From the IMG/VR virus record IMGVR_UViG_3300032315_000228, positions 1 to 61,069 of that record: a stretch of DNA of 61,069 bases. One strand, written 5' to 3'. The stretch is from a virus (lineage: Duplodnaviria; Caudoviricetes). The notes beneath the pieces are model-generated. The model saw only the letters and a list, made by a program, of their open reading frames with translations. It was not told where the DNA came from and searched no databases. Each line of letters begins with the position of its first letter. Within the stretch, counting starts at the first letter, position 1. The position numbers and the translations under genes were made by a program. Positions 18,866-59,221 of the stretch are shown here, one piece after another.

Positions 18866-20404
18866 TCAGTAGTACGCCGCAGAGCGACGTTTAAAAAATC
18901 GTGGTTCATCTGGCTCATCCGTGTCTAGCGTGATGAAGCCGCCTTGTCTGAATCGAAGTAGTGCTTGGCTGGTCGTGTCCACAAAGTCATCGTGTTCGCC
19001 AACTGGGAAGGCCGCAACCTCCTCAATCACTTCACGCGCCCAGCGTGTGTCAGGTGCCCACACCATACCAGAGGAGAACAAGTCCGCAATAGCCTGCACA
19101 CGCACCATCTTATCGTTTCCGCGGCTCGGTGTAAATTCTTGTACAGGGATACCCATCGCCCTAAGCTCTTGGATCAGTGGCCCACCTGCCGCCTTTTTCT
19201 CCACAATGAAGGCATCGGGTTGCCATTCTTTCCAATGCTTGAAGGCGACTTGTTTAAGTTCTGGGAATGGGATTCGGTCTTTGAAAGCGTCAAGGAGGAT
19301 AAGCTGGGGCTTGTCGTTCTCCTCTTCGTTGTACCAGACCCCCCAAGTAGTACAGGCAGAATAGTCGGAGGTTGTTTTGGTTTCATGCGCCGTGTCCCAT
19401 GACTGGATGATGTACTCACAAGTTGGTGGTGTGTCGCCCTCCCACATCCGCCAGTGCTTCCTTGAGATGATCGCCGCCGTATCCGAGGTAGGCTGCTGCA
19501 TATACTGCGCGTTCCAGTAGCGGGGATCCATTGAGGACTTGGCAGACTTCAGCGCTTCCAGCGGCCACTGCTCCGGCCAGAGGGATTTCTCTCTATCTGT
19601 GTTCTCGTTCAGGATGGCGGGAAGCTCAACAATCTCCCAGCGTGGGCTGTCGGGGTTGCTCACCTGATACTGTATGAGTCTGCCAGTTAAGTCCAGTGGC
19701 CCCCAGCGCGTCATGATTACTATGATCGCACCGCCCGGCATCAGACGTTGCAAAGGGCCCGTCTGGAACCAACTCCACGCCGTGTCAAACGCTAGACGAC
19801 TGTTTGCTTTTACGTCCTGTTCCGAGTGCGGGTCGTCGATAACAAAGAGATCAGCCCCGCGACCGGCAAGAGCACCACCAACACCAGCAGCGTAATACTG
19901 GCCCCCAGCAGCAGTACTCCACTTTCCAGCAGCTTTCTGGTCATCTGCAACAAGTGTCTGTGGAAATAGCTCATGGTATTGCTCATCATCAAGTAAGTTA
20001 CGAACCCGCCGACCAAAGTCTTCAGACAGCGATGCAGTGTGCGTCCCCATGATAATTTTCTTGTTAGGGTAATTACCTAGGAAGAACGCGGGGAACAGGT
20101 AAGACGAGAACTCGGACTTACCCATACGTGGGGCAATGTTGATAATTACTCTCTTCTTTTTACCCTCAATCACATCTTGAAATATCTTGGCCAGCTTCCT
20201 GTGGTGTGGCCCAACCTTAAATCCGGGGTAGACATACTTAGAAAACTCGATCATGTTAGTACGACCAGCGTTGACGTTGTAACGCTTCTCACGTTCTTCC
20301 AGCATCTCCATGAGCTCCACCTTCTCCGCCAAATTCATGGTGGGGAGAGCTTTCTGGATAGCCTGAATCTCAGTTGGACTCAGTGTCAGATCGTTCAGTT
20401 TCAT
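18866..20404 (-). CDS. terL: Terminase large subunit
   Basis: Walker A APRMGKS, Walker B FVIDD, YMQQP linker, nuclease SWDTA...HDDFVD. Confidence 0.95.
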   Translation of the reverse strand: MKLNDLTLSPTEIQAIQKALPTMNLAEKVELMEMLEEREKRYNVNAGRTNMIEFSKYVYPGFKVGPHHRKLAKIFQDVIEGKKKRVIINIAPRMGKSEFSSYLFPAFFLGNYPNKKIIMGTHTASLSEDFGRRVRNLLDDEQYHELFPQTLVADDQKAAGKWSTAAGGQYYAAGVGGALAGRGADLFVIDDPHSEQDVKANSRLAFDTAWSWFQTGPLQRLMPGGAIIVIMTRWGPLDLTGRLIQYQVSNPDSPRWEIVELPAILNENTDREKSLWPEQWPLEALKSAKSSMDPRYWNAQYMQQPTSDTAAIISRKHWRMWEGDTPPTCEYIIQSWDTAHETKTTSDYSACTTWGVWYNEEENDKPQLILLDAFKDRIPFPELKQVAFKHWKEWQPDAFIVEKKAAGGPLIQELRAMGIPVQEFTPSRGNDKMVRVQAIADLFSSGMVWAPDTRWAREVIEEVAAFPVGEHDDFVDTTSQALLRFRQGGFITLDTDEPDEPRFFKRRSAAYY

Positions 20405-20993
20405 TAGGTTCTTGTGTGTGAGTACTAACTTCTTCTATATCCTCAATAACATCGGCGTCTTGTACGCCCATGAACTTGGCCAGCTTGTCTTTGAGCTTGC
20501 GGTCGATCTCCTCATCCGTGAGGTCAGTTTTCTTAACTTCAATCTTGTCGGTGAACAACCCAACCTCAGTGACCTTACCTAGTAATCCCAACGCTTTTAG
20601 TCGGATATTAGCGCTGGGGTTTTCGCATTCTTCCAACAGTTTGGCAACTGTATAGCCACGAAGTTCTTTAGCTTGCTGCACAAACTCCCAGTCATAGGCA
20701 GTCAGCATCCCAACTAAATGCTGTACCGCAACCGGCGTTTTGATTTGCGCAAGATGTTCGTGCGTGATTTCACTTGGCGCTGAAGACACGAGGTTTGTAA
20801 AAGATGCCCGTGCTGCTTGAACTTCTGCGTTGCTGACTACTGTGTCTGTATCTGCGGCTCCTAAACTCTTGAGCCAGTCTGCTGTTTTTACTTTAGCGTC
20901 GATAGTGTCCGCCGGATGTTCTTTTTCAAGCGGCGTAGGTTTACCAGAGTGGGCAACCACTTCCGGTTCAAAATAAATAAGGTGATCTAACAT
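20370..20993 (-). CDS. Putative terminase small subunit
   Basis: Directly upstream of and overlapping terL; RLKALGLLGK...LFTDKIEV. Confidence 0.65.
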   Translation of the reverse strand: MLDHLIYFEPEVVAHSGKPTPLEKEHPADTIDAKVKTADWLKSLGAADTDTVVSNAEVQAARASFTNLVSSAPSEITHEHLAQIKTPVAVQHLVGMLTAYDWEFVQQAKELRGYTVAKLLEECENPSANIRLKALGLLGKVTEVGLFTDKIEVKKTDLTDEEIDRKLKDKLAKFMGVQDADVIEDIEEVSTHTQEPNETERSDTESN

Positions 20994-21008
20994 TGGCGCA
21001 TAAGTCCC

Positions 21009-21037
21009 TTGTACCTGCGATGCGCGGAGTGTATACT
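21009..21037 (+). promoter_or_regulatory. Sigma70-like promoter TTGTAC-17-TATACT driving the candidate sRNA
   Basis: Canonical spacing; overlaps a possible divergent late promoter (TTGCCC-18-TACACT, - strand). Confidence 0.65.
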
Positions 21038-21043
21038 ACTTTT

Positions 21044-21164
21044 TAAGTGATGGGCAAGTTGCGAATTGGCCTTTGGCCAACCGCAACAGCAGTTGCCGGT
21101 TGCTTCTCCTCGGTTGTTGGTTCGACCGTTTAGCCCCCTGATGAAAGTCAGGGGGTTTTTTTTT
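21044..21164 (+). ncRNA. Candidate anti-Shine-Dalgarno small RNA (~120 nt)
   Basis: Promoter; hairpin 21053-21097; unpaired GTTGCTTCTCCT 21099-21110; hairpin 21111-21128; terminator; no ORF with an SD. The 5' end is inferred. Confidence 0.7.
21133..21164 (+). terminator. Intrinsic terminator of the candidate sRNA
   Basis: GCCCCCTGA-TGAAAG-TCAGGGGGT followed by a T run. Confidence 0.9.
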
Positions 21165-21206
21165 GATTGAATACTTATTCTGCGGCTTTGTAAACTTAAA
21201 CTGTTT

Positions 21207-21222
21207 TGTCCAACGGTTTACA
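21207..21222. promoter_or_regulatory. Operator-like dyad TGTCCAACGGTTTACA (copy 1 of 3)
   Basis: Matches the consensus TGTCYAACNNTWKACA also seen at 29504 and 37851. Confidence 0.45.
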
Positions 21223-21477
21223 CAAATTTTTATAAAATTTTTTGGGGTGGGGCATTAGTTGTAAAGTACTAAATTGAGTTGTGGAGAATGGCTGGGGAAT
21301 AGTGTTCATATGGTGACGGGGGTACGCCCTGTATATGGGGGGATGGGGGGTAGGTGGGGTCTAAGGTTCTCAGTTTATACGGCTTTGTAGTACCCTCGAA
21401 TACCCCTTCCATACAATAGAGGTATCGGTTCGGGGCACTTTGCCTACGACGATACTCGTTCTTGAAAGGAACACACC

Positions 21478-21858
21478 ATGTTAAAAGCTAAAGCATTTCA
21501 GGCACTCGACCAATTCGCAAACGCAAGGGTCAAACTCATCGAGGGTATGCAAGCTGCGGGCTACGCAACGTCAGAGGAATGTAGACCCATTGTTATCGAG
21601 TGGGCTTGCAAGAAAACAGGCGCAGAGTTTCGAGTCGCAGAGTCATCGGGCGCAGTCAAGCTCGTGAGCAGTCACCCCAAGTATGAGACGGCAAAGACCG
21701 TAGTTCGTGACGTGATGCTCATGCTCGAGGGCACAACCCGCAGAGAGCAGGCATCGAGTGGCGCACGAGAGACTGACGCTGTGGCAGAGCTTGCCAAGAA
21801 GTATGCCAAGCTAACCAAGGCAGAGCAGAAACGCTTCATGCGCTTGGCTGGTCTGTAA
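21478..21858 (+). CDS. First early gene, hypothetical
   Basis: 126 aa, SD AAAGGAA, TACAAT box at 21412-21417. Confidence 0.8.
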   Translation: MLKAKAFQALDQFANARVKLIEGMQAAGYATSEECRPIVIEWACKKTGAEFRVAESSGAVKLVSSHPKYETAKTVVRDVMLMLEGTTRREQASSGARETDAVAELAKKYAKLTKAEQKRFMRLAGL

Positions 21859-21860
21859 TT

Positions 21861-21879
21861 TCGGGTCACGGTGACCCGA
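21861..21879. repeat. 19-bp palindrome TCGGGTCACGGTGACCCGA (copy 1 of 4)
   Basis: Perfect 9-1-9 dyad starting 3 nt after a stop codon. Confidence 0.9.
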
Positions 21880-22340: not shown

Positions 22341-22359
22341 TCGGGTCACGGTGACCCTA
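22341..22359. repeat. 19-bp palindrome copy 2, TCGGGTCACGGTGACCCTA
   Basis: One mismatch; just after the stop at 22333. Confidence 0.85.
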
Positions 22360-28369: not shown

Positions 28370-28388
28370 AACTTAAAGGAGAAGTAAC

Positions 28389-32756: not shown

Positions 32757-34720
32757 CAAAACCATTTGACAGGATACTGACCATCGACTTTGAAACTCGG
32801 TGGGACAAGCGTGACTACACGCTATCCAAGATGACAACAGAGGAGTACATACGTGATAAAAGGTTCTTATCGTTCGGCGCTTGTGTCCATGAGTATGGAA
32901 GCACAGATGACATTAGCTGGGTTAGAGGAGCAGACCTACCTGAATTCTTTTCGGGAATTGACTGGGGACGGACAGCAGTGCTGGCGCATAACGCACAGTT
33001 CGATGTATCCATCCTTGAGTGGGTCTACGATTCTCACCCAGCCTTTATATTCGACACACTATCAATGGGACGCGCTCTTCGAGGCGTGGAAGTGGGGAAC
33101 AGTCTTGCGAAGCTGGCGCTCGACTTCGGACTTCAGCCAAAGGGAACGGCAGTACACAGCACTGATGGCCTCACATCAATATCGCCAGACATTGAAAAAG
33201 AACTCGCCGACTACTGTGCGCATGATGTGTACCTGTGCGAAGAAATTTTCAAGCGATTCATTGTTGGATACCCCAAATCCGAATTGCGTTTGATCGACAT
33301 GACGCTCAAGATGTACACACGACCGTACCTTGAGCTTGACAGCAAGATGCTTATCAAGGCACTGACAGAAGAAGGAGAAGCCCGTGAAAGTCTATTACAA
33401 AAGCTCGGCATACAGGAAACTGAACTTGCGTCGAACCCGAAGTTTGCTGCCATACTTGAAAGCCTCGGGGCTGTTGCCCCCACAAAAATTAGTAAAACTA
33501 CCGGCAAAGAAACACTCGCGCTGGCAAAAAACGACGCCCTCTTCCAAGCGTTGCTCAATGGTGAACGTGAGGATGTTGCCCTCCTTTGCGAAGCACGCCT
33601 TCGGGTTAAGTCAACGACTGAAAGAACCAGAGCCCAGCGCTTCCTCGATATATCCCAACGCGGCAAGCTACCTGTACCTTTATCGTATTACGGCGCTCTC
33701 TCGGGTCGCTGGACGGCGGCAAAGGGCAGCGCAATTAACATGCAAAACCTCAAGCGAGGCAGTTTCCTACGCAAAGCAATTATGGCTCCCGAGGGCTACC
33801 AGCTTGTTGTCGGTGACCTCTCACAGATTGAACCGCGAGTACTTGCGTGGCTTTCGGATTACCAAGATATGCTCAACATCTTCAGGTCAGGCGCTGACCC
33901 TTACGCGGCTTTCGGAGCGCAGATGTTTGACATACCCGGACTTACTAAGGAGTCTCATCCGGAGCTCCGTCAGTCTGCGAAAAGCGCCTTACTTGGTTGC
34001 GGCTACGGCTTGGGCTGGTCATCATTCGCGTCCCAGCTTCTCGTGGGGTTCCTCGGTGCGCCGCCGATCCGGTATGAAAGAGCCTTTGCAAAGGCGTTGA
34101 AAGTTAACCAAGAGATGGCCGAGCGCTTCTTGGAATGGTCTGAAACAGAGATCAAGCTAAGGGATATCCCACACACATGTAGCTATGCCGAGTTAGTGCA
34201 CCACGCTATCGCGGCCAAGCGCATCATTGATATATACCGTAACACGGCGTACCCTGTTGTGTCATTTTGGGACATGTGCTCTGACCTATTAGTGTCCGCG
34301 CTGGTCAACGGCAAGGAACACACCCACAAGTGCTTGACATTTAAGAAGGGTGCAATAGAATTGCCTAACGGGATGAGCTTGCTTTACCCCGATTTGCGCG
34401 AAATCAAAGACGAAAAAGGTAGGAGCCAGTGGGTATACGGGCCAAACGCTACCAAGTTGTATGCAGGGAAGATAACGAATAACGTAACACAGGCTGTTGC
34501 GCGTATTGTCATGACCGATGGAATGCTGCGGGTATCAAAGAGATACCCCGTGGTGGGAACAGTGCATGACGAGTTGATCGCGCTTGTGCCTGACAGTGAG
34601 GTCGAAGAAGCTAAGACTTGGGTCTTGGAGCAGATGACTATGGAGCCGAGTTATATGCCGGGGATACCCTTGGCCGCTGACGGTGGTGCACACCGTAGAT
34701 ATGGAGAAGCAAAGACATGA
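32753..34720 (+). CDS. polA: DNA polymerase family A with a 3'-5' exonuclease domain
   Basis: Exo IDFET and HNAQFD; motif A DLSQIEPR, motif B RQSAKSALLGCGYG, motif C VHDE. Confidence 0.95.
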   Translation: MTKPFDRILTIDFETRWDKRDYTLSKMTTEEYIRDKRFLSFGACVHEYGSTDDISWVRGADLPEFFSGIDWGRTAVLAHNAQFDVSILEWVYDSHPAFIFDTLSMGRALRGVEVGNSLAKLALDFGLQPKGTAVHSTDGLTSISPDIEKELADYCAHDVYLCEEIFKRFIVGYPKSELRLIDMTLKMYTRPYLELDSKMLIKALTEEGEARESLLQKLGIQETELASNPKFAAILESLGAVAPTKISKTTGKETLALAKNDALFQALLNGEREDVALLCEARLRVKSTTERTRAQRFLDISQRGKLPVPLSYYGALSGRWTAAKGSAINMQNLKRGSFLRKAIMAPEGYQLVVGDLSQIEPRVLAWLSDYQDMLNIFRSGADPYAAFGAQMFDIPGLTKESHPELRQSAKSALLGCGYGLGWSSFASQLLVGFLGAPPIRYERAFAKALKVNQEMAERFLEWSETEIKLRDIPHTCSYAELVHHAIAAKRIIDIYRNTAYPVVSFWDMCSDLLVSALVNGKEHTHKCLTFKKGAIELPNGMSLLYPDLREIKDEKGRSQWVYGPNATKLYAGKITNNVTQAVARIVMTDGMLRVSKRYPVVGTVHDELIALVPDSEVEEAKTWVLEQMTMEPSYMPGIPLAADGGAHRRYGEAKT

Positions 34721-36240: not shown

Positions 36241-36257
36241 AACAATGGAGAAGCAAC

Positions 36258-37866: not shown

Positions 37867-37888
37867 AATAACATAACAGGAGAAGCAA

Positions 37889-42621: not shown

Positions 42622-42769
42622 ACCGGGGCAGGGGTTCTTTGTTCCCTGCCTCGACACCAACGCCATACGCACCGAGGGTCTAAACCAAGCGCTCAAGCAT
42701 AGGATATTTAATGCCAAAGCCACCCCGTGTATACGGGCGGGGCTTATCGGGGTATGGTTTTATCGGTAG
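42581..42769 (+). CDS. Hypothetical protein
   Basis: YPW....GQGFFVP...GVWFYR; last gene of the + arm. Confidence 0.65.
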   Translation: MKRLSIKYPWQKTEPGQGFFVPCLDTNAIRTEGLNQALKHRIFNAKATPCIRAGLIGVWFYR

Positions 42770-45700
42770 CTTGTTCCACAGTTGTGGCGAAACGAATTTT
42801 CAGTTTACGAAGCTCATCCAGTTGTTGGCGTTTTTGCTCAGGTGACGCATTGGATGCTTTGATTGCGTTTTCGTACTGAGTCAACTCACGCATGGTGGTG
42901 GTGTAGTAGTCTGCTATTTCAGCCGCGGCATACTCATTACCGCGTGTGTTCAGCAACTCCATAGCCTCGGCTTTGTAGCCACGGTTCATCAAGCTTTCAA
43001 CAGAGTTTTCAACTTTCTTAAACTCATTCATGCGGTCGTAGACACGGTTGATAATGGCTCCAGCATCGTTGGGCTGGAAGGCGCTGCCCACCACAGGCAT
43101 ATTAGACAAACGCTTGACCGCCGCTTCGGGGCCTTCGCTTTTGGTAAGTCCCAAACCAACAGCCTGAACAAACGCCAAACCCATAGCGCCTGTGTAGCCT
43201 TGCACCAAGCTGTCCAAAATAATCGGTGACACACCTGCTGCGCGTCCAATAGTTTTGGAAACTTCCGAAGTGTTTTCACGGAACTGGTCTTCTGGCAGCA
43301 GCCCTTTTTCTTGCGCAGACAGTATGTCACGGCCTGTATAGAACGACTTACCAAGACCAGCTTCAATAGCTGGGCGCATGGCTTGCGGGATACCGTAGGA
43401 TGTGCCGCCCGGAATCACTTGTTTCAAGATGCTGCTAAATGCTTTGACCGCTTCTTCGCTGCCGTGCTCGTTGACCATAGAGTTATACAAAGCTTCGGGC
43501 AACGCTTTGAAGATGTAGCCAATCTCAAACGGGATGGGTAGGCGCACAGCTTCTTCCACGCCGGGCACACGGATAAACCAGTTGCCGTACTTCTGCTCTG
43601 GGGTGGCGTTCTTGTAAGCTTCGTCATCCTGCATCATGGCGGCATATGCCAGCGTACCAGCGGCAATCATGCCTCCACGCAACAGTATCTTTTTCTGAAT
43701 CTTTAACTTCTCGTTGAATGGCAGCTTGCCAGTCATGGCCTTGTACAAAACATTTAAGCCTTGAATCTGCGCGTTAAAGAACGGAATCAGTGAGTTAGCC
43801 ATGTGGACGCTAGGAGATGCGCCGCGCTTGTTAAAGTTCATAGACTCCAACGACATCAGCGTAGCTTCCATCTCAGACAAGCCTTGGTTGATGTAGCTGT
43901 TGTACTGAGCACGGCGGGTTGTTGCATCCGCTTCCATGTTGATAGCTTCGAGCTTACCAAACGCTTGCACCCAACCACTCTTGTCGTCTGCAATATCTCG
44001 CAGAATCTTAGAAATGTCTTCGCTAGAACCTGTGAATATCTGACCACCTGTGATGCCTCGGCGCTCAAGCGTCTCTTTAGTAGCTGACTTACCCAACTGT
44101 CTAAGCGCACCAATAACCGGCACGAAGTCCGCACCGACAAGGATGGGCGCTGCCAAAGAGTCACGGAACAACTGTCTAGCTGCGTACAACGGCGATGCTG
44201 TAACGGCTTTACGCAAGAACGTAGCAGGCATACCGAGCAGACGGAACATACCAGGCATCTGTGTGGGGATACCTTCCATGCCTTTGACCAATACCTCAGC
44301 AGGCACACCGGCATCATCGGTGTTGATAACCGCAAAGCGGTCTTCGCCGTCCACCTTGAAGCGCACAATATCGGGGCCAGCCATCTTACTCTTACCAATC
44401 TTGGCCAAGTCCATGTTGGCCAACTCAATGACTGCGTTCTTGGTTGAGATGTTGCGCAAGCCCATGTCCACCAGCATGTTGGTGTTCTGTACCGAGCTAG
44501 TCATGAAGTCAAGGATGGGACGGTCGCCGCCAACAAGCTCTTGCAAGTAGGGCTGCTCGGCAATGTTGCCGATCTTGATGGGGGACTCGCTACCAATAAC
44601 CAACTCTGCCGTGCCATTGCGTTGGCGATACCAAGGGATGTAGTCGTTGTTCTTTGTAAGAGCAGCAGCCGTTTCCTTTGAGATAGCGCCAGTCTGGGCA
44701 AGGAAGTTCATCATGTCCTTGTTGTACTGGTTGTACTCAGCACGGGCTGCATCAAAGATTTTTTTAACCTCTGGGTTGTTATCCACAGACGCTTTGGCTT
44801 GTTTAAGTTCAGCGGCGGTCAAATCTTCACCAAAGTGCAGTGCGGCAAAGCCTTTATCTTCAGCACGGATGGCAGACATGTACATAGTAAACAAGCGGTT
44901 TACAGCTTCGCCGTTGCCCACCATTGGGTTGGCTTGCTTGAGAATCTGCACCACGTTCTTGATGCTGGCTCCGCCACCGGCCTCGATGATGCGCTCGATG
45001 CTGCCGTCTTTGCGGGTCTTCTCAACAATTTGCAAAGCACCGTTATCAACAGCCTGAGATACAAAATTCATGCGCTGGTCGTACATGCGCAAGTAGTACA
45101 GCATCTGTGTGCCAACCAGCGGCTTCATGATCTTGGCCAAACGCTCAAAGCCTGCGAAGCGGTCAACAAACTGCGTTTCAAAAGTCAAGCCGGTGGAGTT
45201 AGCCTGTACCTTATCGTAGAACGTGCGGTTCTTGGCTACAAACTTGTCAGTCACAGCGCCAGCAGAAGCAAACTCTGGGTTAACATATTTAGCTTTTGTG
45301 CGGAACAGAACTTCGCCGGGAGCGTATTCGCCTGCCACAACATTTGGGCGCTTGCCCTCAATCACGTACTGGCGTGCGTCAGCAACAATTCGGCGAACAT
45401 CGTTGTCGCTAATATTCTTGATACCCGTGCTACTGAACCACGCTTTGATAGCGTCAAAGATTTTGCGCAGAGCACTGCGAGTGTCTGGGGTAGGCTCGGC
45501 ACCGGTCTCGGCCATGTCAGCCAAGACTTCCTCAACTGCTGTGTTGCGGTCAAGGTTTGGTTCTTTGCTTAGCTTGGCATCCGCAAGTTTACGAACTGTC
45601 TTGTTGCCGGTGTAAAGCTCGGCCATAGTCTTGCTGTAGTTGCCGCCCAGTATTTCTTGCAAGCCAAAGTGACCAGCTATTTCGTGCGCTATGGTCAATG

Positions 45701-48700
45701 CCACATCATTAGCGTCTTGCAAGTTGTCAGCAACCAAGTACACAGTTTTAGTGTTTGGGTCATACAAGCCGGGAATCAAGCCAGTTTTCTCATCACGCTC
45801 AGCTTGTTCTCTGATTCTGTCTGGCAGACCAGACTCATTGGCTACAACTTTAATTGGGGGTTTAATAACCCAGTCCGCTGTGATGCGTTCAGCTAAGCGT
45901 TTAACGTCCTCGACGCTACTGCCGCCACCCGCCGTAGCAGTTCTGAACTTTGCCGCCTTAGCGTTAATACCGGATGGATAAAATTTTGTTTTTTGGTCAA
46001 CGAACGCCTGCTCAAAAGCGTTAAGTGGTTTACCGCTTGCTCTTTTTTGAAGCAACGCATCCACGCGTTCTTTGTCTTGCTTGGTCAACTCTGCTTGGCC
46101 AATGCCTCTACCTGAATAAACAGTCTTCTCAGCTTTGCTCGCTTTTTGAACTTCTGAGCGCGTCAGCTTTTCGCCGCTGGTTGTTGGGGCGTTAGCACGC
46201 TTAGCGGCTTCAGCATTTTGTTCTTTCTGAAGGGCCGCAGCAACCGCTCTCTTTTGCGCGGGGCTTTTTCTAATCTCACCTTTTGATGGCCGCTCTTCAG
46301 GAATACGTACCTGATTATTGTTAATTTTTTCTTCAAGGATTTGTTCTTTTTGGTAGAACGCCGACAACTCTTTGATGTCCTGCGCCATACCTTTCCAAGT
46401 CACAGGTTTGGAGGTAAGTTCCGTGACGGCCTTGTCGTAAGCATTCTCTGCTTCTTCCAGCTTGGGAATTATTTCAGAACGTTCGTCCGCAGACTTAGCG
46501 TCTTTGTACTGTTTATCCAGCTTATTGCGTGCTTCCAACAAGCCTTGTACTTCTTTCATCCGCGCTTCTTCGGATGTCTTCTGTGATTCTTGCAGACGTT
46601 TTTCAATTGTTGTTATGCTGCTGCGGTAACCGCCAAGAACTTTAAGCGGGTTCTTCTTGATATCTACTTGCTCGGCCACAGACAGAACAGGTTTGCCCAA
46701 AGCCCTAGAAGCGCGTTTGGCTTCGGATATGGCAGGGTACTCTTGGCCTCTGGCCTCTTCGCCGTACATAGACTCAAGGCGCTTTTGATTTTCTTTACTA
46801 AGATCAATACGCTCTTGCACAGATTTGGCTTGAGCAATTGCCTCTGCTGTGCGTCTGGCACGGGCAGCTTCTTCTGTTTGCTTTGCCACAACTTTGCCAG
46901 CTTCGCTTTCAATAACACCAGCGGCACGTTGAGCATCCAGTAAGTTTTGTTTTGCTTCAGCAAGCGCTTCTTTTGATACGCGTTGGGGATTCAGCCTAGC
47001 CAAAGTAATCTTGGCGGCTTCTACTTTCATCTGCGCTTCAAGCGTATTCAGTGCACCGTTTAATTCTGCGGACTCGATAGACAAGTCATGTAATTTTGAT
47101 TCAACGGTATTGAGATCTACCAAGAAAGGAAGTTCAACCGTATCCCCTAATGCGCGACCTTCATTTATCAGATCAGTGCGAAGCTTTTGCAGTTCATCCA
47201 AACGCCCTTGCAACTCCATGCGCTCAATAACACGGTCAGTCATGACAGCGCGAATCTGATTTATGTCCCTGCGTTGCTTACCGACATCGCGGTTTAGCTG
47301 GATAGTGCGTGCAGCATCTGAATAGTCAAGACGGATTTTCTCCATCTCTTTGGCTTTGGCTTCCAGTTCTTTAATCTTGACTTTTAGTTCAGCAAGCTTG
47401 GCTCGGTCAAGGGCTTCTTGGTCAGTACGCAAGGCTTTACGCAGCTTATTGACAAACGGGCTACGCATGAAACGCTCAAACGCTGCACGGTCAGGCTTGA
47501 TGTAGCCAAGTTTCTTCTCTTCGTCGGGGAACAACCCAAGTTGACCAGCTTGCGCCTCGGCTGCGCCACGTTCTCTTGCTTCCAACAACGGTGTAATTTC
47601 TTCTTCCAAAGACAAGGGCTGTGCTTTTGCACTTGGGCCACGCAGTGTTTCTTTGGTAATGTCGGATACGCGCTTGCCAACTGCGGTTTCTCCGATAGGG
47701 AATCCTTGCAGTGTTGTTGGCTTCGGTGCACCTGCTCTGGCACGGCCTTCTTCGCCGCGCTCAATCTTGGCCAACTGCTTATCAAGCAGGGACAGCACGC
47801 CTTGGTTGTCTGTCCGTGGCAGTACGTTTTCAGCACGGCGCAAGAACGCATATGTGTCGTCAGTCAGTCCGGGCTGTGCAAGAGCGCTGGCAATACGCTG
47901 TGCAATATCTTCTGAGGTATTAGGTCGAACCGGCTCGCCTTGGCGTGCAAATAAACGGAACCCCTCACTTGGGGCTTTCTGAACTTTTGGCGGGGTAGTA
48001 TCGACTTCAGGCGCGGTATAGATTAACTCGCCTTGATCTCCGGGCTTAGCGCCGCGCAGTGTTTGCTGCATCTGTCCCATTGCGGCTGAACCTTCTGGCC
48101 CAGCTTCGCCACCTTGAGTGGGGATCTCAATGCCCATTTCTGGGCCTTCACCTTTGCGGCCTGCGATCCGCTGTATACCTTGGATTTCTGGGCGGATCTT
48201 CTGTTGGTACTCTTCTTCCAGCGCTTTGCGACGTGCTTCTTGGGCAGCAGTTAATCGTGCTGCAAACTCAGGCTGTGTCTCAGATACCTGCTCTTTGGTC
48301 GCTCTGCCAAAATCAAGACGTAGTTGAGCTGGCGCGGCTGTTTTTGCCCTCTCTTGCAGCGCTTCAATCTCTGCAATAAGCTTGTCAGCTTTTACGGGGT
48401 CATAACCCTCGCCGCCTAAACTCTTAAGCTGTGCTTGCTTTTTCTCAATCTTGCCTGTGATGCCATCAAGTGACTCTGCCTTTTCATCAGGCCCTAATTT
48501 TTCAAGTTGGCTATTTATATAGTTTTGCTCAGTGGCAAGCATCTCTCTGCGTGGGCGCAGTTGTTTTATCAGGTCAATGTTGCCTTGCGCAGCCGCCTCA
48601 GACTCTTGGCGTTGATGGACATCCATCAACTGCGCCAACTCTTGCTGCTTTTGCATGAACTCAGAACGCTTGGCAGCTATATCTTCTGCTGGCTTTGGCG

Positions 48701-50129
48701 CTACATTTTCTGTCTCCATCGGCTCAAGGCCGGGGATTGTTTGCTGTACGCCGGGTTGCTGATTCATTGCCTGCAACTCAAGCGCAATAGCTTTTTGCTT
48801 GTCGTCTTCGGCTTTCTGTCTGTCAATATTTTCTTGCTGCTTCTTCAACTGAGCGCGGATACCAGCCGTTTGCTGGTAGTCGGCCATAGTCTGCTTGTAC
48901 TCATCAGACTTTTTAAAGTTTTTAAGCGCAGTTTGCGCCGCATTTCGCGCTTCTATTCCAGCCAAATCGGTAGGGTCAACTTTGCTTTTGGCCTGTTCAC
49001 GCAAAGTAGCAAACTGTTGTTGCAAGTCGTTGTACTTGGCTTCAGCTTCCAACGCAAACTCAGGTGACTCACGAAGTAATTTTTCTGCGGCAGCTTGTTC
49101 AGCAGTAGCGGCTTCCTGTGCGGCACGGTCTTTCTCTTCTTGCTCCATCGCCTCCATACGCTTCTTGCGTATGTCCAAGGCTTGCTCTTGTTCAACTTGT
49201 TGGCGTGCGCCGCCAACTTCAGACATCCTACCCACAGCACCGATTGGCCCAAGCAGTCCAGCTTGATATGCAGTTTCGCCGTATTCTTTTAACGCATCTG
49301 GGCTACTAAGGGGTAACCCTGCTTGCGCCCGTTGAATAATCTGCTGCGTAATTTCAGTAGGAAGCTCAAGTGCCGCGCCAGTCGCAGTACCTTTGGCAAT
49401 TGTGGCCAGTATTCTTTCGTCAGCCAGCTTAGTGGCTTGTTCGGATGTACGACCGAGAAGCGTCTCAACAGGAAGGCCCGTCAGTTTGCTGACCAGTCTG
49501 CCGCCCAAGGGAATGAAGGTACTTGCGACATCAAGCGCGGTTTGGGGAGCGGCTGCTAGAGCAGCTTTACCTGTACTTACTTGTTGGCCTTCTGCTGCTT
49601 GGCGTTCTACGTTACCGCCCAACTGTTGCAAAAATGAGGGCGCAACTAAGCCGACACCACCACCAACAACTGAACCCACAGGCCCAAATGGTGAGCCTGC
49701 CAAAGCGCCCAGACGAGCGCCACCAACAGACGTAGCTAAGTTGGGTAACTGTTCTGAAATTGCGTAGGGTACTTGGCTGATGGCTTCGCCAGCCGCAGAC
49801 AACAAACCTTTATCTGCGTAGGCTTGCTTAACTTTCTCGAGACTTACTTGGTCAGCATAGCGTTTGCCAATGTCTTCGCCGCGTTCTAAACCGGCCCTAG
49901 CTGCTTCTTCTCCAGAGCCAAGCAGTGAACCAAGACCCGAGCGTAGCTGGGAGAAAGTAGACTCCGCACCTTTTTCAAGGCCAGCAATCAAACCTTCCTT
50001 GGGTTTCTGTTGGGGTTGTTCGGCTAGATGTTGCTGAAGAAACGCGATGACTTGTTCATCAGAAGCGCCTTCAGGGCCCTGTACGTCGTAGATTCGCCCA
50101 TCGGGGCCTTTAACGCTATATATGGGCAT
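42744..50129 (-). CDS. Large internal virion/ejection (polyvalent-type) protein, 2461 aa, with a zincin-like HExxxH domain and an LPD38-like C-terminus
   Basis: GLYDP...AHEIAGHFGL...EEVLA; IPFFNAQIQG, RLPIPFEIG; long coiled coils. Confidence 0.75.
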   Translation of the reverse strand: MPIYSVKGPDGRIYDVQGPEGASDEQVIAFLQQHLAEQPQQKPKEGLIAGLEKGAESTFSQLRSGLGSLLGSGEEAARAGLERGEDIGKRYADQVSLEKVKQAYADKGLLSAAGEAISQVPYAISEQLPNLATSVGGARLGALAGSPFGPVGSVVGGGVGLVAPSFLQQLGGNVERQAAEGQQVSTGKAALAAAPQTALDVASTFIPLGGRLVSKLTGLPVETLLGRTSEQATKLADERILATIAKGTATGAALELPTEITQQIIQRAQAGLPLSSPDALKEYGETAYQAGLLGPIGAVGRMSEVGGARQQVEQEQALDIRKKRMEAMEQEEKDRAAQEAATAEQAAAEKLLRESPEFALEAEAKYNDLQQQFATLREQAKSKVDPTDLAGIEARNAAQTALKNFKKSDEYKQTMADYQQTAGIRAQLKKQQENIDRQKAEDDKQKAIALELQAMNQQPGVQQTIPGLEPMETENVAPKPAEDIAAKRSEFMQKQQELAQLMDVHQRQESEAAAQGNIDLIKQLRPRREMLATEQNYINSQLEKLGPDEKAESLDGITGKIEKKQAQLKSLGGEGYDPVKADKLIAEIEALQERAKTAAPAQLRLDFGRATKEQVSETQPEFAARLTAAQEARRKALEEEYQQKIRPEIQGIQRIAGRKGEGPEMGIEIPTQGGEAGPEGSAAMGQMQQTLRGAKPGDQGELIYTAPEVDTTPPKVQKAPSEGFRLFARQGEPVRPNTSEDIAQRIASALAQPGLTDDTYAFLRRAENVLPRTDNQGVLSLLDKQLAKIERGEEGRARAGAPKPTTLQGFPIGETAVGKRVSDITKETLRGPSAKAQPLSLEEEITPLLEARERGAAEAQAGQLGLFPDEEKKLGYIKPDRAAFERFMRSPFVNKLRKALRTDQEALDRAKLAELKVKIKELEAKAKEMEKIRLDYSDAARTIQLNRDVGKQRRDINQIRAVMTDRVIERMELQGRLDELQKLRTDLINEGRALGDTVELPFLVDLNTVESKLHDLSIESAELNGALNTLEAQMKVEAAKITLARLNPQRVSKEALAEAKQNLLDAQRAAGVIESEAGKVVAKQTEEAARARRTAEAIAQAKSVQERIDLSKENQKRLESMYGEEARGQEYPAISEAKRASRALGKPVLSVAEQVDIKKNPLKVLGGYRSSITTIEKRLQESQKTSEEARMKEVQGLLEARNKLDKQYKDAKSADERSEIIPKLEEAENAYDKAVTELTSKPVTWKGMAQDIKELSAFYQKEQILEEKINNNQVRIPEERPSKGEIRKSPAQKRAVAAALQKEQNAEAAKRANAPTTSGEKLTRSEVQKASKAEKTVYSGRGIGQAELTKQDKERVDALLQKRASGKPLNAFEQAFVDQKTKFYPSGINAKAAKFRTATAGGGSSVEDVKRLAERITADWVIKPPIKVVANESGLPDRIREQAERDEKTGLIPGLYDPNTKTVYLVADNLQDANDVALTIAHEIAGHFGLQEILGGNYSKTMAELYTGNKTVRKLADAKLSKEPNLDRNTAVEEVLADMAETGAEPTPDTRSALRKIFDAIKAWFSSTGIKNISDNDVRRIVADARQYVIEGKRPNVVAGEYAPGEVLFRTKAKYVNPEFASAGAVTDKFVAKNRTFYDKVQANSTGLTFETQFVDRFAGFERLAKIMKPLVGTQMLYYLRMYDQRMNFVSQAVDNGALQIVEKTRKDGSIERIIEAGGGASIKNVVQILKQANPMVGNGEAVNRLFTMYMSAIRAEDKGFAALHFGEDLTAAELKQAKASVDNNPEVKKIFDAARAEYNQYNKDMMNFLAQTGAISKETAAALTKNNDYIPWYRQRNGTAELVIGSESPIKIGNIAEQPYLQELVGGDRPILDFMTSSVQNTNMLVDMGLRNISTKNAVIELANMDLAKIGKSKMAGPDIVRFKVDGEDRFAVINTDDAGVPAEVLVKGMEGIPTQMPGMFRLLGMPATFLRKAVTASPLYAARQLFRDSLAAPILVGADFVPVIGALRQLGKSATKETLERRGITGGQIFTGSSEDISKILRDIADDKSGWVQAFGKLEAINMEADATTRRAQYNSYINQGLSEMEATLMSLESMNFNKRGASPSVHMANSLIPFFNAQIQGLNVLYKAMTGKLPFNEKLKIQKKILLRGGMIAAGTLAYAAMMQDDEAYKNATPEQKYGNWFIRVPGVEEAVRLPIPFEIGYIFKALPEALYNSMVNEHGSEEAVKAFSSILKQVIPGGTSYGIPQAMRPAIEAGLGKSFYTGRDILSAQEKGLLPEDQFRENTSEVSKTIGRAAGVSPIILDSLVQGYTGAMGLAFVQAVGLGLTKSEGPEAAVKRLSNMPVVGSAFQPNDAGAIINRVYDRMNEFKKVENSVESLMNRGYKAEAMELLNTRGNEYAAAEIADYYTTTMRELTQYENAIKASNASPEQKRQQLDELRKLKIRFATTVEQATDKTIPR

Positions 50130-50146
50130 CGCTGCACATCCTAATT

Positions 50147-52369
50147 TTAACCGGGGCGTGACCCCACAACAGAAAATCCTCCGGCTGGGGCCGGAGTTCC
50201 CGCCGTCATTGTAGGCGTAATTCCATAAGATTGGTACGCTTCCATGCGATATTTATTTCGCATTTGTTCATACAAGTCGGGGGACTGAAGCAACGCCATT
50301 TTGTTGTTTTTAGCCCAAGCTTCTACAGCATCTAGCGCGGCTTTTTCTGCTAACGCCACGTTGTTTTTATCTTTGGCACCACGTTCATAAAAAGCAGCTT
50401 CGGCAAGCGCTTTCTTACCCATCGCTTTGCGATATTCAGATTCAGACATTCTGTTTTCGCGTTCGGATTTAGACTTTTCCTCCGCCTGTTGCATAGCCAG
50501 CGTACCCAATCCCGCTTCGCCAATATTGGTAAGCATGTTGGGAGACTTGCCCGCCATGAGTTGTAAGCCCAGTTGTAGCATCAGCCTGTTCATATCCAAG
50601 CCGCCTGTTTTTTCTTCGGGCGCGGCAGTAACAGTTTCTGGTGCAATTTCTGGTTTGGCTACTTGGACACCTTCCGTTTTGTTCTGTTGACCAATTTCAA
50701 ACTGTCGGAAGGCAGAATTTAAGTCGGACACACCACCTTGAGGCGTTTCAAATTCAATTTCAGGCTCAGTAGGCGCTATTGCTGCCAGCCCTTCTCCGGT
50801 TTGCACAGCAGTTTTTGTGTCGGTAGCAGCACGGGCGCGGTTCATCAATCTGGCGGCTTCGTCAGATTCACGCAAGTATGAAGCTTGTTGCAAGCGCTCC
50901 GCCATACTTGGCAGCTTCGCGGTTTCTTGGGCTGTACGTGCCGCCGCTTGGCTGGCGACAAGTTGATCCGCTGCTTGGTTGGCCAAACGTGCTTTTTCCA
51001 AATTTGCCGCGCTTTGAACCGTAGCTTCCCCTGCTTGTGTGACGGGAATTACTTGACTGCCTTGTTCAAGGACTTGGGCAGGAGGTGTTAAGCGTGGGGG
51101 TAGCTGTGCAGTTTGTGCAAGTCTTGCCGCTTCAGTTTCGGCTCTGAGTGCGGCAATTTGTTTCTCCGTCATACCCGCAGCAGGTACGAACTTTTCGTAT
51201 ATTTTTTCGCCTAGAGCAGCAAGTCCAGAGGATTTTGCCGCTTTTGGTAGTGCTGTCACTGGTGCCAACGGCGTTGGAGCCATTAGCGTATTGGAGATAT
51301 TGCGCTGTGTTTCTTGCGATAAACCCAGTCTGTCAGCGAGATTGCCAAAGAACGTACTCTCATCTCTTGCTGCGGGAGCCTGCACAGATTGACCGGGGAT
51401 TTGATTGATAGCGTTGTTACCGGTTAACGCAGTAATACCCGCATCTCTAGTAGGAGGTGCTTGCACAGATTGACTGGGGATTTGATTTATGGCGGGGTTA
51501 GTAGCGGCGGCTGTTGCAGTGCCAACAAAAGGAATCATAGAAGGCATACGTGCAGCTACTTGTTTCCCGTACTGAAAGGTTGTTTGTCCCTTATCTTCAG
51601 CAGAAGCAACGGCCTCCCCCTTTTGCGCTTTAGCAAGTCCTCCCGGGCCACCATAATAGTAAGCACCTGCTAACACAGGGTCTCCGCCTGATTTCTGCCA
51701 GCCTGTTGAAGCGTAACGAATGCCAGCCCGCATGTTTTCAAACGGATCAGCGCGGTCTTTTAATTCGGCGCCCTTACTTGAAACGTCCGTCCAAGCACCT
51801 TTAGTAACTTGCATAGGCCCCATTGCACCGGACTTATCGCGGGTGGGGGCGTTCAACGCTTGATCGGATTCTTGTGCATGAACAGATTTTAAAAATGCGC
51901 GTTGTGCGGGATCTTTAATGCCTTCAGCATCAAGCGCTTTTTCAAACATTTCGGGGCCGCCCTCAAATTGATACCCCTTCAACTGTTTATATTTTTTCTT
52001 TACGCCGGTAAACACGCCCTCAGCATACCCCGGTACTTCACCGCCATCATCAAACGCAACAATGCCGCCACCTGCCATGTTTTGCATATTGGGTGCGGGG
52101 AGCATAGCGATGCCTTGATCTTCGGGCATGGGCTGAGCCATCTCTTGCAAGTTCTGGTCAACTACCTTGGGCGCTGGGGGCGCTTGGGTGTTCTGCGCAG
52201 CACGCATTTGCTTACGGGTATTTGATTCTTGGAACGCCATAGGGAAGATGTACGGGTCGTTCTTGTGCATCTGGGCGTACTGAATCAACTGCTGATCCGG
52301 CATCATGCGCAACTGCGCCATGAGCTTGCTGGGGTTCGGTGCTGTGGGGTTTGAGATTGGGGCAACCAT
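50147..52369 (-). CDS. Internal virion protein with a lytic transglycosylase (SLT-like) domain
   Basis: AQES...SGAMGPMQV...DPFENMRAGIRY...AYYYGGPG. Confidence 0.8.
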   Translation of the reverse strand: MVAPISNPTAPNPSKLMAQLRMMPDQQLIQYAQMHKNDPYIFPMAFQESNTRKQMRAAQNTQAPPAPKVVDQNLQEMAQPMPEDQGIAMLPAPNMQNMAGGGIVAFDDGGEVPGYAEGVFTGVKKKYKQLKGYQFEGGPEMFEKALDAEGIKDPAQRAFLKSVHAQESDQALNAPTRDKSGAMGPMQVTKGAWTDVSSKGAELKDRADPFENMRAGIRYASTGWQKSGGDPVLAGAYYYGGPGGLAKAQKGEAVASAEDKGQTTFQYGKQVAARMPSMIPFVGTATAAATNPAINQIPSQSVQAPPTRDAGITALTGNNAINQIPGQSVQAPAARDESTFFGNLADRLGLSQETQRNISNTLMAPTPLAPVTALPKAAKSSGLAALGEKIYEKFVPAAGMTEKQIAALRAETEAARLAQTAQLPPRLTPPAQVLEQGSQVIPVTQAGEATVQSAANLEKARLANQAADQLVASQAAARTAQETAKLPSMAERLQQASYLRESDEAARLMNRARAATDTKTAVQTGEGLAAIAPTEPEIEFETPQGGVSDLNSAFRQFEIGQQNKTEGVQVAKPEIAPETVTAAPEEKTGGLDMNRLMLQLGLQLMAGKSPNMLTNIGEAGLGTLAMQQAEEKSKSERENRMSESEYRKAMGKKALAEAAFYERGAKDKNNVALAEKAALDAVEAWAKNNKMALLQSPDLYEQMRNKYRMEAYQSYGITPTMTAGTPAPAGGFSVVGSRPG

Positions 52370-52378
52370 GATTGTTCC

Positions 52379-53719
52379 TTATTGCATTTTCAGCAGTGCC
52401 AACTCAGCTAATCCGGCGGGGCGTTTCTTTTCTTTGATTCGACCACCTTTGGCTTTACCTATGCCTGCAATACCAGCGGCAGTCAGACCCAAACCTCCAA
52501 GCTGTGAAAGTGGGTTAGGCTGGGCTTGATAGCCTTGCACGGTAGTTGACTGCATAGGCATACCACGCAACAAGTTGCTCATGTTGCTCAACTGCATCAT
52601 GGGGTACTGCTGCGCCGTAGCGTAGTTCTGAATCTGCTGGTTTAGGATTGCTTGTTGTTGCTGTTGTTGTTGTGAACCCATCTGGTTCTGCAACTTGTTG
52701 ATGTCCATACCCTGTTGGAACTCTTGACCACCTAACTGACCAAGTTGGCTTGCACCTTGTAAAGCGGTTTGGAGCCCCTGCATACCAAGACCCGCGCCGT
52801 ATTGACGAGATTGCTCGCCTAATTGCTGGCCTTGCATACGTAAACCAGCGCCATACTGACGAGATTGCTCGCCCGTTTGCTGGGCTTGCATACGACGAGC
52901 TTGGTCGGCATTGAATTGCTGCTGAGCCTGTTGAAACGCGGCATTCGAGCCTTGGGCCTGAATGTCCCCCATCTGCTGACCAAGATTACGCTCACGCTCT
53001 GCACGCATGATGGCATCGCGACCGCCACCAAAAGCACCGGCTTGGGTGGCTTGGGCTTGTTGTTGTGTACCTTGAATCGCAGACTGCCTAGCGGCTTCAC
53101 GTTTACCAATATCAGTAACACTTTGCTGATAGGGGTTCATGTAAAAGTCGGCTGCACCCTGATTAAACGTACCACCAGAGAACCTCCCGGGTTGGTAACT
53201 AGCAGCAGCAGAGAATTCTCCGGGCCTATAGTTAGTACCTAAACCGCCTATACCTGCGGCAAGGGCTAAGTCCGTGGCAGTTCCCAGTTGTTGGGACGGC
53301 TGCATGTTAGCAGCGCCCTGAAACGACTGTTCTTGCAGAGGAGAGAACCCCGCAAAATACTTGCTGGGGTCTTCACTAAAAGGTTTGTAACCTTTCAGGC
53401 CTTTTGGCACCATAGCGCCTTCCGTCCCCGGTATTAATCTTTTTTCAGTTCCAATTTGTACTCCGGGTGTACTACCACGATACCCGGTTGCCGGGCCATA
53501 GATAGGAACATCCTCGTATTGAGCTTCTGATGGCCCATATTCAAAAAGCTCCTGTTGTGCCGAGCCCAACATGGTCTCTACATAGGGGCGTGCATATTCA
53601 GGGATGTTTGTGTTGTATGAAGTGCTTGTTTGCGACCCCCCACCACCACCGCTGTCGCCTCCGCCGCCCATGTACCCGCTCAAAGGCAAAAGCTTGCGTC
53701 TCATGTCTAATATATTCAT
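52379..53719 (-). CDS. Internal virion / DNA-transfer protein
   Basis: Gln/Gly-rich; YMNPYQQSV, AGAFGGGR; ejection module. Confidence 0.7.
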   Translation of the reverse strand: MNILDMRRKLLPLSGYMGGGGDSGGGGGSQTSTSYNTNIPEYARPYVETMLGSAQQELFEYGPSEAQYEDVPIYGPATGYRGSTPGVQIGTEKRLIPGTEGAMVPKGLKGYKPFSEDPSKYFAGFSPLQEQSFQGAANMQPSQQLGTATDLALAAGIGGLGTNYRPGEFSAAASYQPGRFSGGTFNQGAADFYMNPYQQSVTDIGKREAARQSAIQGTQQQAQATQAGAFGGGRDAIMRAERERNLGQQMGDIQAQGSNAAFQQAQQQFNADQARRMQAQQTGEQSRQYGAGLRMQGQQLGEQSRQYGAGLGMQGLQTALQGASQLGQLGGQEFQQGMDINKLQNQMGSQQQQQQQAILNQQIQNYATAQQYPMMQLSNMSNLLRGMPMQSTTVQGYQAQPNPLSQLGGLGLTAAGIAGIGKAKGGRIKEKKRPAGLAELALLKMQ

Positions 53720-54123
53720 ATCTTCACCTCTACTATTGCATAGCGTTCTACGAAGCCAAATTTCTTTGCAAACCTTGCCATGACAGGTCTCACGGCACCT
53801 TGAATTTTAGTGGCCCCAAAGCCTTTTAAAACAACCTTTAACTTTTCCAGCATGTCGTCGCTGGTAATCAAGTTCCCACCCATTGCGGTAACAAACGCTA
53901 CCCGATCATTTGGGTAGTTTGAAAAAGTCACGGTAGCTGCGCCATGAACGTGGTTGTTCTCATCAACTGCTACCAACAGCGTCCACAAGTTTTTTGCCAA
54001 ATAAACTTTTATCTGGTCTACGTTGTAGTCGCCGCCCCCAAACTTTTCAGACGAAGCTATGTGCGCCTCAACAAGCGGCCAAGCTTGCGCTACATACTCA
54101 ACGGGGATGTGCTGAATAATCAC
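53716..54123 (-). CDS. GNAT-like virion-module protein
   Basis: GAATVTFSNYP...VAFVTAMGG...GATKIQG...GFVERY. Confidence 0.6.
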   Translation of the reverse strand: MIIQHIPVEYVAQAWPLVEAHIASSEKFGGGDYNVDQIKVYLAKNLWTLLVAVDENNHVHGAATVTFSNYPNDRVAFVTAMGGNLITSDDMLEKLKVVLKGFGATKIQGAVRPVMARFAKKFGFVERYAIVEVKI

Positions 54124-54130
54124 CCCAGCC

Positions 54131-54538
54131 TCACAACGGAATCCGCATCACCTGATGCGTTACTTTCAAACCAAGCTTCTCGTACATGTTTACCAAAGTG
54201 CCCTTAGCCCAAAGCTGCGCAGTTGTTGCACCTTGCAAACGCATCCACTTATACAGTTCTTCAATAACATGTGGGCGCACAATACCTTTGCCACCCATCA
54301 AGTTCCCATGCGCCACACGCTCAAGGGGGTAATCCATAAGATCGACCACTGCCGCACCAGTAATGCCTTCGCCCGGCTCGTCCCACACCAACAAGAACGT
54401 ACGCCCTGTGCGTATTGCATACTCGACCAGTTCTATTTTATTCAGGTCAGGATCAAGGTCAATTGCTTTCTGTATCAAAGGCGCAGCAATAGGCCACACT
54501 TGTGGCAACTCGTTTGGGCGAATTTGGTAAAGTGGCAT
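54131..54538 (-). CDS. GNAT-like protein, paralogue of 53716..54123
   Basis: VWP...GAAVVDLMDYP.ERVAH...MGG...GATTAQ...YEKLG. Confidence 0.6.
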   Translation of the reverse strand: MPLYQIRPNELPQVWPIAAPLIQKAIDLDPDLNKIELVEYAIRTGRTFLLVWDEPGEGITGAAVVDLMDYPLERVAHGNLMGGKGIVRPHVIEELYKWMRLQGATTAQLWAKGTLVNMYEKLGLKVTHQVMRIPL

Positions 54539-54540
54539 GG

Positions 54541-55680: not shown

Positions 55681-55713
55681 ATTTACCTCGTATAAAAGGG
55701 GTGGTTGATATTA

Positions 55714-56028: not shown

Positions 56029-56031
56029 TTT

Positions 56032-57963: not shown

Positions 57964-57966
57964 AGT

Positions 57967-59196: not shown

Positions 59197-59221
59197 AGGT
59201 GTCCTTTAGTTCAGTGTATTT

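Follow-up and report, generated by a model that had tools for sequence, protein, structure and literature searches.

A conserved structured RNA gene between the diverging gene arms of a tailed phage: a candidate anti-Shine-Dalgarno RNA for the early genes

A short structured RNA gene is conserved in a large family of uncultured phages, one that is abundant in environmental viromes, and we describe it here in the Caudoviricetes record IMGVR_UViG_3300032315_000228, a complete genome of 61,069 bp with direct terminal repeats (this whole stretch is called the window below). The predicted small RNA (sRNA) is ~120 nt long and occupies 21044..21164 of the + strand, its 5' end being placed from the -10 element of a putative promoter and its 3' end taken as the T-run of a terminator. 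The unit sits inside a 484-bp gap between diverging gene arms, with structural, packaging or lysis genes on the - strand (1-20993 and 42744-61069) and small open reading frames (ORFs) of unknown function followed by a replication module on the + strand (21478-42621). On the basis of this gene content, we infer that the - strand arms are "late" and the + strand arm is "early". The leading explanation, to which we assign a probability of roughly 0.55, is a trans-acting sRNA that pairs through an anti-Shine-Dalgarno (anti-SD) sequence with the phage's own early and replication mRNAs. Its transcription, the sign of its effect and its timing we likewise infer, as we do the role of a late switch.

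Conservation and structure of the RNA unit

Candidate stretches were collected through the large terminase (TerL); of 599, 597 carried a TerL relative, and we used the best 80 of these matches (at least 597 in all). From 74 regions upstream of the putative small terminase gene (terS) we derived 63 distinct units with a near-universal layout, consisting of a TAYACT -10 box (often in AGTGTACACT), a leader, a variable hairpin, the element TTGCTTCTCCT, a second hairpin whose sequence varies, and a G+C-rich terminator ending in a T-run. When these units are aligned, the stems vary, TCCT is the same in all of them, and conservation of TTGC-TC reaches 90% or more. A covariance model found exactly one match in each of 88 of the 99 sources, always upstream of terS; of the 11 sources with no match, nine are loci that end before the region according to a terS look-up and two are distant isolates. 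The sole match in the window spans 21039-21163 (70 bits); the predicted fold of the 125-nt RNA has a free energy of -57.2 kcal/mol (z = -5.88), matched by none of 200 shuffled sequences. The stand-alone non-coding unit with its CU-rich element, as the initial annotation described it, is a conserved RNA gene and not a chance hairpin, and we are highly confident that this gene is real.

Reading of the sequence located every element that had been listed. The 5' arm of the closing helix P1 (AAGUGAU, 21045..21051) has its partner at 21099-21105, as the fold and covariation agree. Between them lies hairpin 1 (21053..21097), a variable insert that is long in the window and, by comparison with relatives, shrunk to GCAAGCAGUUGC or absent elsewhere. 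The segment that follows (21099-21110, + strand) reads GTTGCTTCTCCT and includes the conserved element at 21100..21110, in which TTGCT(T) forms the 3' arm of P1 and CUCCU (21106-21110) is the exposed anti-SD core. Hairpin P2 (21111..21128), which is kept in the tails of relatives and covaries, leads to the intrinsic terminator (21132..21164), comprised of an 11-bp G+C-rich stem (21132-21157) and nine T (21156-21164). All of these elements are on the + strand.

The initial annotation had taken the whole 12-nt segment to be unpaired. This is correct for CUCCU, which has an unpaired probability of at least 0.98 in the window if transcription starts ~7 nt after the -10, as assumed in these calculations, and is incorrect for GUUGCUU, seven of the 12 bases, which pairs with the leader AAGUGAU. 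Averaged over the family, unpaired probabilities are 0.04-0.26 for UUGCU, held in the G-U-rich helix P1, and 0.91-0.97 for (U)CUCCU. The idea of a 12-nt accessible seed was therefore abandoned for an accessible stretch of just ~5-6 nt; in these fold models, the accessible element is a bare anti-SD hexamer.

Three helices covary among the relatives. Alignment with MAFFT followed by RNAalifold recovered P1 alone because hairpin loops were misaligned, and therefore per-sequence folds and an alignment fitted to the covariance model were used. In the fitted alignment, which leans towards structure (the RNAalifold result for P1 and the per-sequence folds are free of that bias), 84.3% of cells are paired as compared with 65.7% in shuffles (0/500 reach it), and compensatory change on both sides occurs in 27 of 31 pairs. 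Slid controls give 40-49%. For P1, formed by the leader with UUGCU(U), RNAalifold gave six of seven pairs changed on both sides, and the same helix shows compensatory change in 8/10 pairs of the fitted alignment (helix 1) and contains many G-U pairs. A two-hairpin tail follows CUCCU in 60 of the 63 sequences; P2 (helix 4) occurs in 42 distinct sequences with compensatory change in 6/6 pairs, and 91.2% of cells are paired in the terminator stem (helix 5). The frequent G-U pairs in P1 (e.g. UG:44, GU:38), together with the T-run on the + strand, identify the RNA as the + strand product. Across the family the terminator carries 5-10 U and P2 is followed by a YUU(Y) linker, these being the sequence features that were looked for in a possible Hfq-dependent sRNA.

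The two strands of P1 do not evolve alike. UUGCUU is almost invariant and its 5' partner drifts solely by A/G and U/C transitions that preserve pairing, as would be expected were the 3' strand to serve a further function that depends on its sequence. Since P1 is rich in G-U pairs, it would be displaceable by a Watson-Crick duplex with a target.

Two other uses of the same DNA were considered and rejected. Coding on the + strand, by a 34-aa ORF at 21066-21170, conflicts with the large indels of hairpin 1 among relatives and with the covarying stems. On the - strand, the reverse complement of the conserved element reads AGGAGAAGCAA, and where the seed of a relative is CAUUGC or CAUUUGC an ATG comes next, so that it could be read as the ribosome-binding site (RBS) of an ORF. 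This was rejected by reading because no start codon is present in the window, the mini-frames (two relatives, inspected by eye) stop after ~8-11 codons, and the G-U pairs of P1 become A-C mismatches on that strand.

At greater distance the model gave no match in the full records of phages DSL-LC04 and HTVC027P, an empty result that shows little, and motif matches in these two genomes are RBSs of ordinary genes. HTVC027P, an AT-rich and distantly related phage, has, in the gap between its divergent genes, a G+C-rich stretch of ~440 bp with no annotated gene (L138:120-560); it bears no similarity to the sRNA and might be another non-coding element. A pattern scan of a genome collection returned mostly chance matches and, among the 80 loci listed, one true copy (65.4 bits). 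That copy (L160:2288-2379) is the sole one among those loci outside viral contigs, being located on a 4.9-kb contig binned in a metagenome-assembled genome labelled Phycisphaerales; as a lead to the host it is weak at best because binning of so short a contig is unreliable.

Complementarity to early ribosome-binding sites

The RBS matches claimed in the initial annotation are real and in excess of expectation. Allowing up to two mismatches, AGGAGAAGCAAC has 17 matches against 5.45 expected, a number reached in none of 100 shuffles. The early arm has four exact copies of GGAGAAGCAA on its + strand (29628, 34703, 36247 and 37879); a fifth, on the - strand, belongs to the RNA gene. Candidate targets, all on the + strand, include the SNF2 helicase, with RBS TGGAGAAGCAAC at 36246..36257 followed by a TTG start, and ORF 37889, where AGGAGAAGCAA at 37878..37888 is followed by ATG and the gain from cofolding is -11.3 kcal/mol. 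Further candidates are the RBSs of ORF 28389 (AGGAGAAGTAAC, 28377..28388) and ORF 34717 (TGGAGAAGCAA, 34702..34712), which, like that of the SNF2 helicase, are named on sequence matches and orthologous sites. The SNF2 helicase (start 36258), which adjoins the best match to the sRNA, begins with TTG in the window and in two relatives (L101, L102) and with GTG in a third (L113); a weak start beside the strongest site is suggestive of tight translational control of this gene.

Early and late genes differ in the form of their RBSs. AGGAGA followed at N3-9 by ATG was counted on coding strands, with no gene calls, 23 times in the early arm and once in the late arms, and AGGAG followed by a base other than A 3 times early and 7 times late. 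With starts from a simple gene caller, AGGAGA lies ahead of 22/46 early and 2/48 late starts (p = 7e-7), and in 62 loci of relatives the counts are 101/348 early and 17/338 late starts. Predicted pairing follows the same division, which bears out the expected enrichment at early over late starts: there are 24 early and 3 late duplexes with an energy of -12 kcal/mol or better, and the full-length cofold gain, with the opening of P1 charged, has a median of -7.0 kcal/mol early and -3.4 kcal/mol late (p = 3e-5). In the comparison with shuffled seeds that the initial annotation had proposed, the real seed outperforms 99.6% of 500 controls in which the 5' flank of the seed was shuffled.

Natural variation of the seed provides a separate line of evidence. 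The comparison drew on the early arms from five relatives and on 37 loci that surround the peptidase gene. The RNA and early genes occur together in 26 records, and the seed-type counts exclude near-duplicates as well as one mis-parsed seed. Genomes with type-A seeds (GCUUCUCC, 13 genomes) have GGAGAAG and GGAGAAAG in a ratio of 63:27, and those with type-B seeds (GCUUUCUCC, 4 genomes) in a ratio of 3:21. Seed type and RBS type are associated (Fisher 6e-7; per-genome Mann-Whitney 0.002, the groups having no overlap), and type B is not one clade, the four genomes falling in three places among type A in a FastTree tree of the peptidase. Over 21 genomes the genome's own seed performs better than permuted seeds in 5000/5000 permutations. 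Orthologous sites follow the same trend, with type-A genomes having GGAGAAGCAA at the RBSs of the SNF2 helicase and ORF 37889, and the type-B genome G004 having GGAGAAAGC(A) there. In two genomes (G005 and L130) the SNF2 site keeps GAGAAGCAA despite losing the GG of the SD. Co-variation of the proposed kind is evident for the U-insertion variant (GGAGAAAG:GGAGAAG, 21:3 versus 27:63) and in the permutations and is missing from three genomes considered below, and the genomes are not independent of one another.

Promoters, proposed mechanism and competing explanations

The putative sigma70-type promoter of the sRNA (21009..21037, + strand) consists of TTGTAC (21009-21014), a 17-nt spacer and TATACT (21032-21037). 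The elements are where the initial annotation placed them, and TTGnnn-17-TAYACT is retained by most of 64 distinct relatives. The match to consensus is poor: eight of 12 positions (3/6 + 5/6), with no listing by a promoter scan, and only 4/64 relatives reach 9/12. As read from these sequences, support for the promoter is its conserved position and not its score. In many relatives the -10 is embedded in the palindrome AGTGTACACT, and the divergent terS promoter that had been suggested does have a candidate in a - strand promoter-like site (TTGCxC, 18 nt, TACACT) that points at terS, shares the palindromic -10 and has its -35 on the conserved GCAAG. Since the palindromic -10 is common to both, coupling of the sRNA to late transcription would be possible. 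The sRNA promoter also heads a cluster of conserved early-promoter-like blocks directly downstream, and from this position early or constitutive synthesis fits as well as late synthesis.

The downstream blocks comprise an operator-like palindrome over TTGACA, TATAAAAT, and, ~65 nt ahead of the first gene, a TATAAT-like box. The palindrome, conserved at 21207-21238 and at the same place in relatives (L009, L013, L034 and others), is a 16-bp TGTCYAA-N2-TTRGACA that overlaps a TTGACA-like -35 and is imperfect in the window; it looks like an operator over an early promoter, and a ATTTTTATAAAATTT block comes after it. The long leader before the first early gene contains further conserved blocks at 21294-21308, 21337-21361 and 21412-21417, namely GGGGAATAGTGTTCA, the G-rich GGGGGGATGGGGGGTAGGTGGGGTC, and the box itself (TACAAT in the window, TATAAT in relatives), ~65 nt before the ATG. 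From their sequences these could be tandem early promoters or parts of a structured 5' untranslated region.

In the mechanism that we propose, host RNA polymerase would start ~7 nt past the TAYACT -10 and produce a four-part RNA: the G-U-rich P1 around a variable hairpin, a single-stranded (U)CUCCU of 5-7 nt, P2, and a terminator with a U tail. The exposed CUCCU would nucleate on the AGGAGA SD of early and replication genes. From there pairing would extend into UUGCUU at the most favourable sites (SNF2 helicase, ORF 37889, ORF 28389 and ORF 34717), opening the weak P1 and giving a duplex of 9-12 bp over the RBS as far as the start codon. Ribosomes would then be kept from binding, or the polycistronic early mRNA passed to RNases, or both, and the late (structural) genes would escape through their other SD forms. 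The RNA might be produced as soon as infection begins and build up as a timer, or might be synthesized late, the two being equally possible. More tentatively, and with somewhat less than even confidence, we propose a general design in which these phages use two SD styles, AGGAGA(A/G) for early and replication genes and other forms for structural genes. One phage sRNA would read the early style by pairing and shut down or meter that class, and seed and early RBSs would co-evolve genome-wide, a one-nucleotide seed insertion being mirrored in about twenty RBSs in several lineages.

A number of observations weigh against an sRNA directed at the phage's own early mRNAs. The exposed seed is only 5-6 nt long, so that longer pairings require the opening of P1, and at most early RBSs the match is limited to AGGAGA(AG), with which any anti-SD could pair. 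One RNA set against dozens of sites raises a stoichiometry problem. Three genomes, G001 and G003 (seed CUCUCUCC) and L127 (UUUUCC), have no matching change in their RBSs; they would pair only through a bulge or G-U pairs, and the exceptions' own seeds rank 20 and 21 of 21. The genomes compared are related, so that the association tests overstate independence, and the tree is of one gene, built with FastTree. Gene starts came from our own crude caller and are approximate, which the AGGAGA-N3-9-ATG count avoids. The weak promoter and its failure to appear in the promoter scan count on the same side, and the early-promoter-like blocks just downstream fit early rather than late synthesis. Finally, the strongest predicted cofold of all (-21.6 kcal/mol) is with a late ORF that starts at 16359. 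This 64-aa ORF on the - strand, between the portal gene and the next, has a start region, GGAGAGGCCAAC, that forms 30 pairs, mostly via the hairpin 1 palindrome UUGGCC...GGCCAA, and the cofold may be an artefact of that palindrome; many relatives lack hairpin 1.

Three other explanations for the same RNA were weighed. It could be real and act mainly on host mRNAs, as a generic anti-SD that damps host translation or a host regulon during takeover, with the match to phage RBSs a side effect of strong SDs. The exposed core is indeed merely the complement of AGGAG, and the 3' module resembles bacterial CU-rich double-hairpin sRNAs that pair with many host RBSs (RF02278, 23.6-26.4 bits; PMC5688073; bioRxiv 10.1101/2024.11.19.624354). 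Yet seed variants follow the phage's own population of early RBSs and orthologous phage sites, and the invariant UUGCUU extension fits phage spacers better than 99.6% of flank shuffles do, so we consider host targets unlikely. Rather less probable is that the short transcript is a by-product of promoter architecture, either a terminated leader or insulator before the early promoters or the idle partner of a bidirectional terS promoter, with the CU-rich element acting at the DNA level or in cis. Such an origin would suit the palindromic -10, the site directed towards terS with its -35 on the conserved GCAAG, and the promoter- and operator-like blocks conserved after the terminator, but P1, P2 and the terminator covary as RNA, with G-U pairs specific to the + strand, and the invariant element lies outside both promoters. 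That element also co-varies with distant RBSs, and a pure by-product would not retain P2 or an exposed, invariant CUCCU.

The RNA might instead act on a protein, as a sponge or mimic that titrates an RNA-binding protein or a nuclease of host or phage. The layout, in which a single-stranded CU-rich tract comes after a hairpin, would agree with this, the motif is conserved more strictly than pairing alone needs, and the hairpin with its CU-rich tail presumably resembles the 3' end of 16S rRNA. Co-variation with RBS variants is predicted by base pairing and unexpected for a sponge, and we know of no protein partner; we regard this as the most doubtful of the explanations considered. The anti-SD sRNA against the phage's own early mRNAs stays the leading explanation.

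Genome setting, known systems and significance

The putative terS (20370..20993, - strand), named by its position before terL, is the first gene of the late arm and starts 16 nt from the -35 of the sRNA promoter; it has no family match. By family searches the - strand arms encode terL, portal, major head, tail fibre and DNA ejection proteins, and they include a 2461-aa ORF in the structural arm (42744-50129, -) with no PHROG match at E 1e-5 or better. On the + strand, the replication module after the small ORFs encodes a family-A DNA polymerase, a PD-(D/E)XK nuclease, the SNF2 helicase and a primase-helicase. Between the small early ORFs the palindrome (C)GGGTCACGGTGACCC(G) occurs twice (21861-21879 and 22343-22357); the first copy has a T-run and is terminator-like, a similar palindrome is present in the relative G004, and the simple gene caller placed spurious GTG starts inside both copies. 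No phage RNA polymerase was found among the 30 ORFs scanned, and no tRNA or tmRNA within the window. No close DNA relatives were found among isolated phages; the nearest TerL proteins, 44-53% identical, are those of DSL-LC04, the pelagiphages HTVC027P and HTVC023P, and MinM2-like cyanophages.

The expectation that the RNA would be new to Rfam was upheld, no family reaching the gathering level across the window. The C4 model was absent both at that level in the window and among matches at E up to 10 in 20900-21500, and sub-threshold matches (anti-hemB, NsiR1, PyrR and others) were dismissed as due only to the terminator and the CU stretch. The best, weak match is RF02278, Betaproteobacteria_toxic_sRNA (23.6 bits in the window and 25.1-26.4 in three relatives); the cut-off is 50, and the likeness is for that reason one of resemblance, not membership. 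As here, members of this family (ncS27/bdhR of B. cenocepacia and S17S of B. pertussis) have an unpaired CU-rich stretch that is complementary to RBSs; after it come a hairpin, a short linker containing U and a G+C-rich terminator that ends in a U tail. This type of layout (CUCCU, P2, terminator) is present in 60/63 of our sequences. RNAs of the RF02278 type are described in two reports as predicted or shown to pair at many RBSs (PMC5688073; bioRxiv 10.1101/2024.11.19.624354). In contrast to them, the sRNA described here is encoded in a 61-kb virus record and in viral contigs of relatives instead of a betaproteobacterial chromosome, has an extra 5' domain (P1 and hairpin 1) that half-sequesters the conserved element, and has candidate targets among the phage's own early genes.

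Among phage regulators, the c4 antisense RNA of phages P1 and P7 is also phage-encoded and blocks translation by pairing around an RBS (PMC12197685). It serves immunity, and its action is confined to one operon (icd/ant), whose mRNA its sites match, whereas the complementarity here is to the SD and spacer shared by a whole temporal class. The sar RNA of P22 is a case related to c4. The T4 RegA protein is alike in concept, as one factor that binds AU-rich sites and turns down translation of many early mRNAs as infection proceeds, many early initiation regions being read by one factor; here an RNA would read a class-specific SD by base pairing. The lambda 6S RNA and StxS likewise stand at the head of an operon, each as a short structured RNA between a promoter and a strong terminator, and StxS, reportedly described by Sy et al. 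in 2020, acts in trans. The present unit differs from these in the separate conserved promoter-like blocks after its terminator and in an anti-SD seed that co-varies with RBSs, and no antiterminator was identified.

Temporal control in phages is known mostly at transcription and, for translation, via proteins such as RegA. In the literature available to us, which consisted of main texts and included few subscription journals, no phage sRNA was proposed to target a whole early gene class via the SD. If true, class-specific targeting of SD and spacer by one sRNA would represent a novel means of constructing a temporal programme and would account for the different RBS forms carried by early and late genes within one genome. 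It would also provide a compact, portable switch for synthetic biology, consisting of one RNA and a tagged set of RBSs. The co-variation of seed and RBSs in an abundant family constitutes a natural mutational series for the rules of sRNA targeting and, together with the class-specific form of the RBS, makes this candidate regulatory design directly testable.

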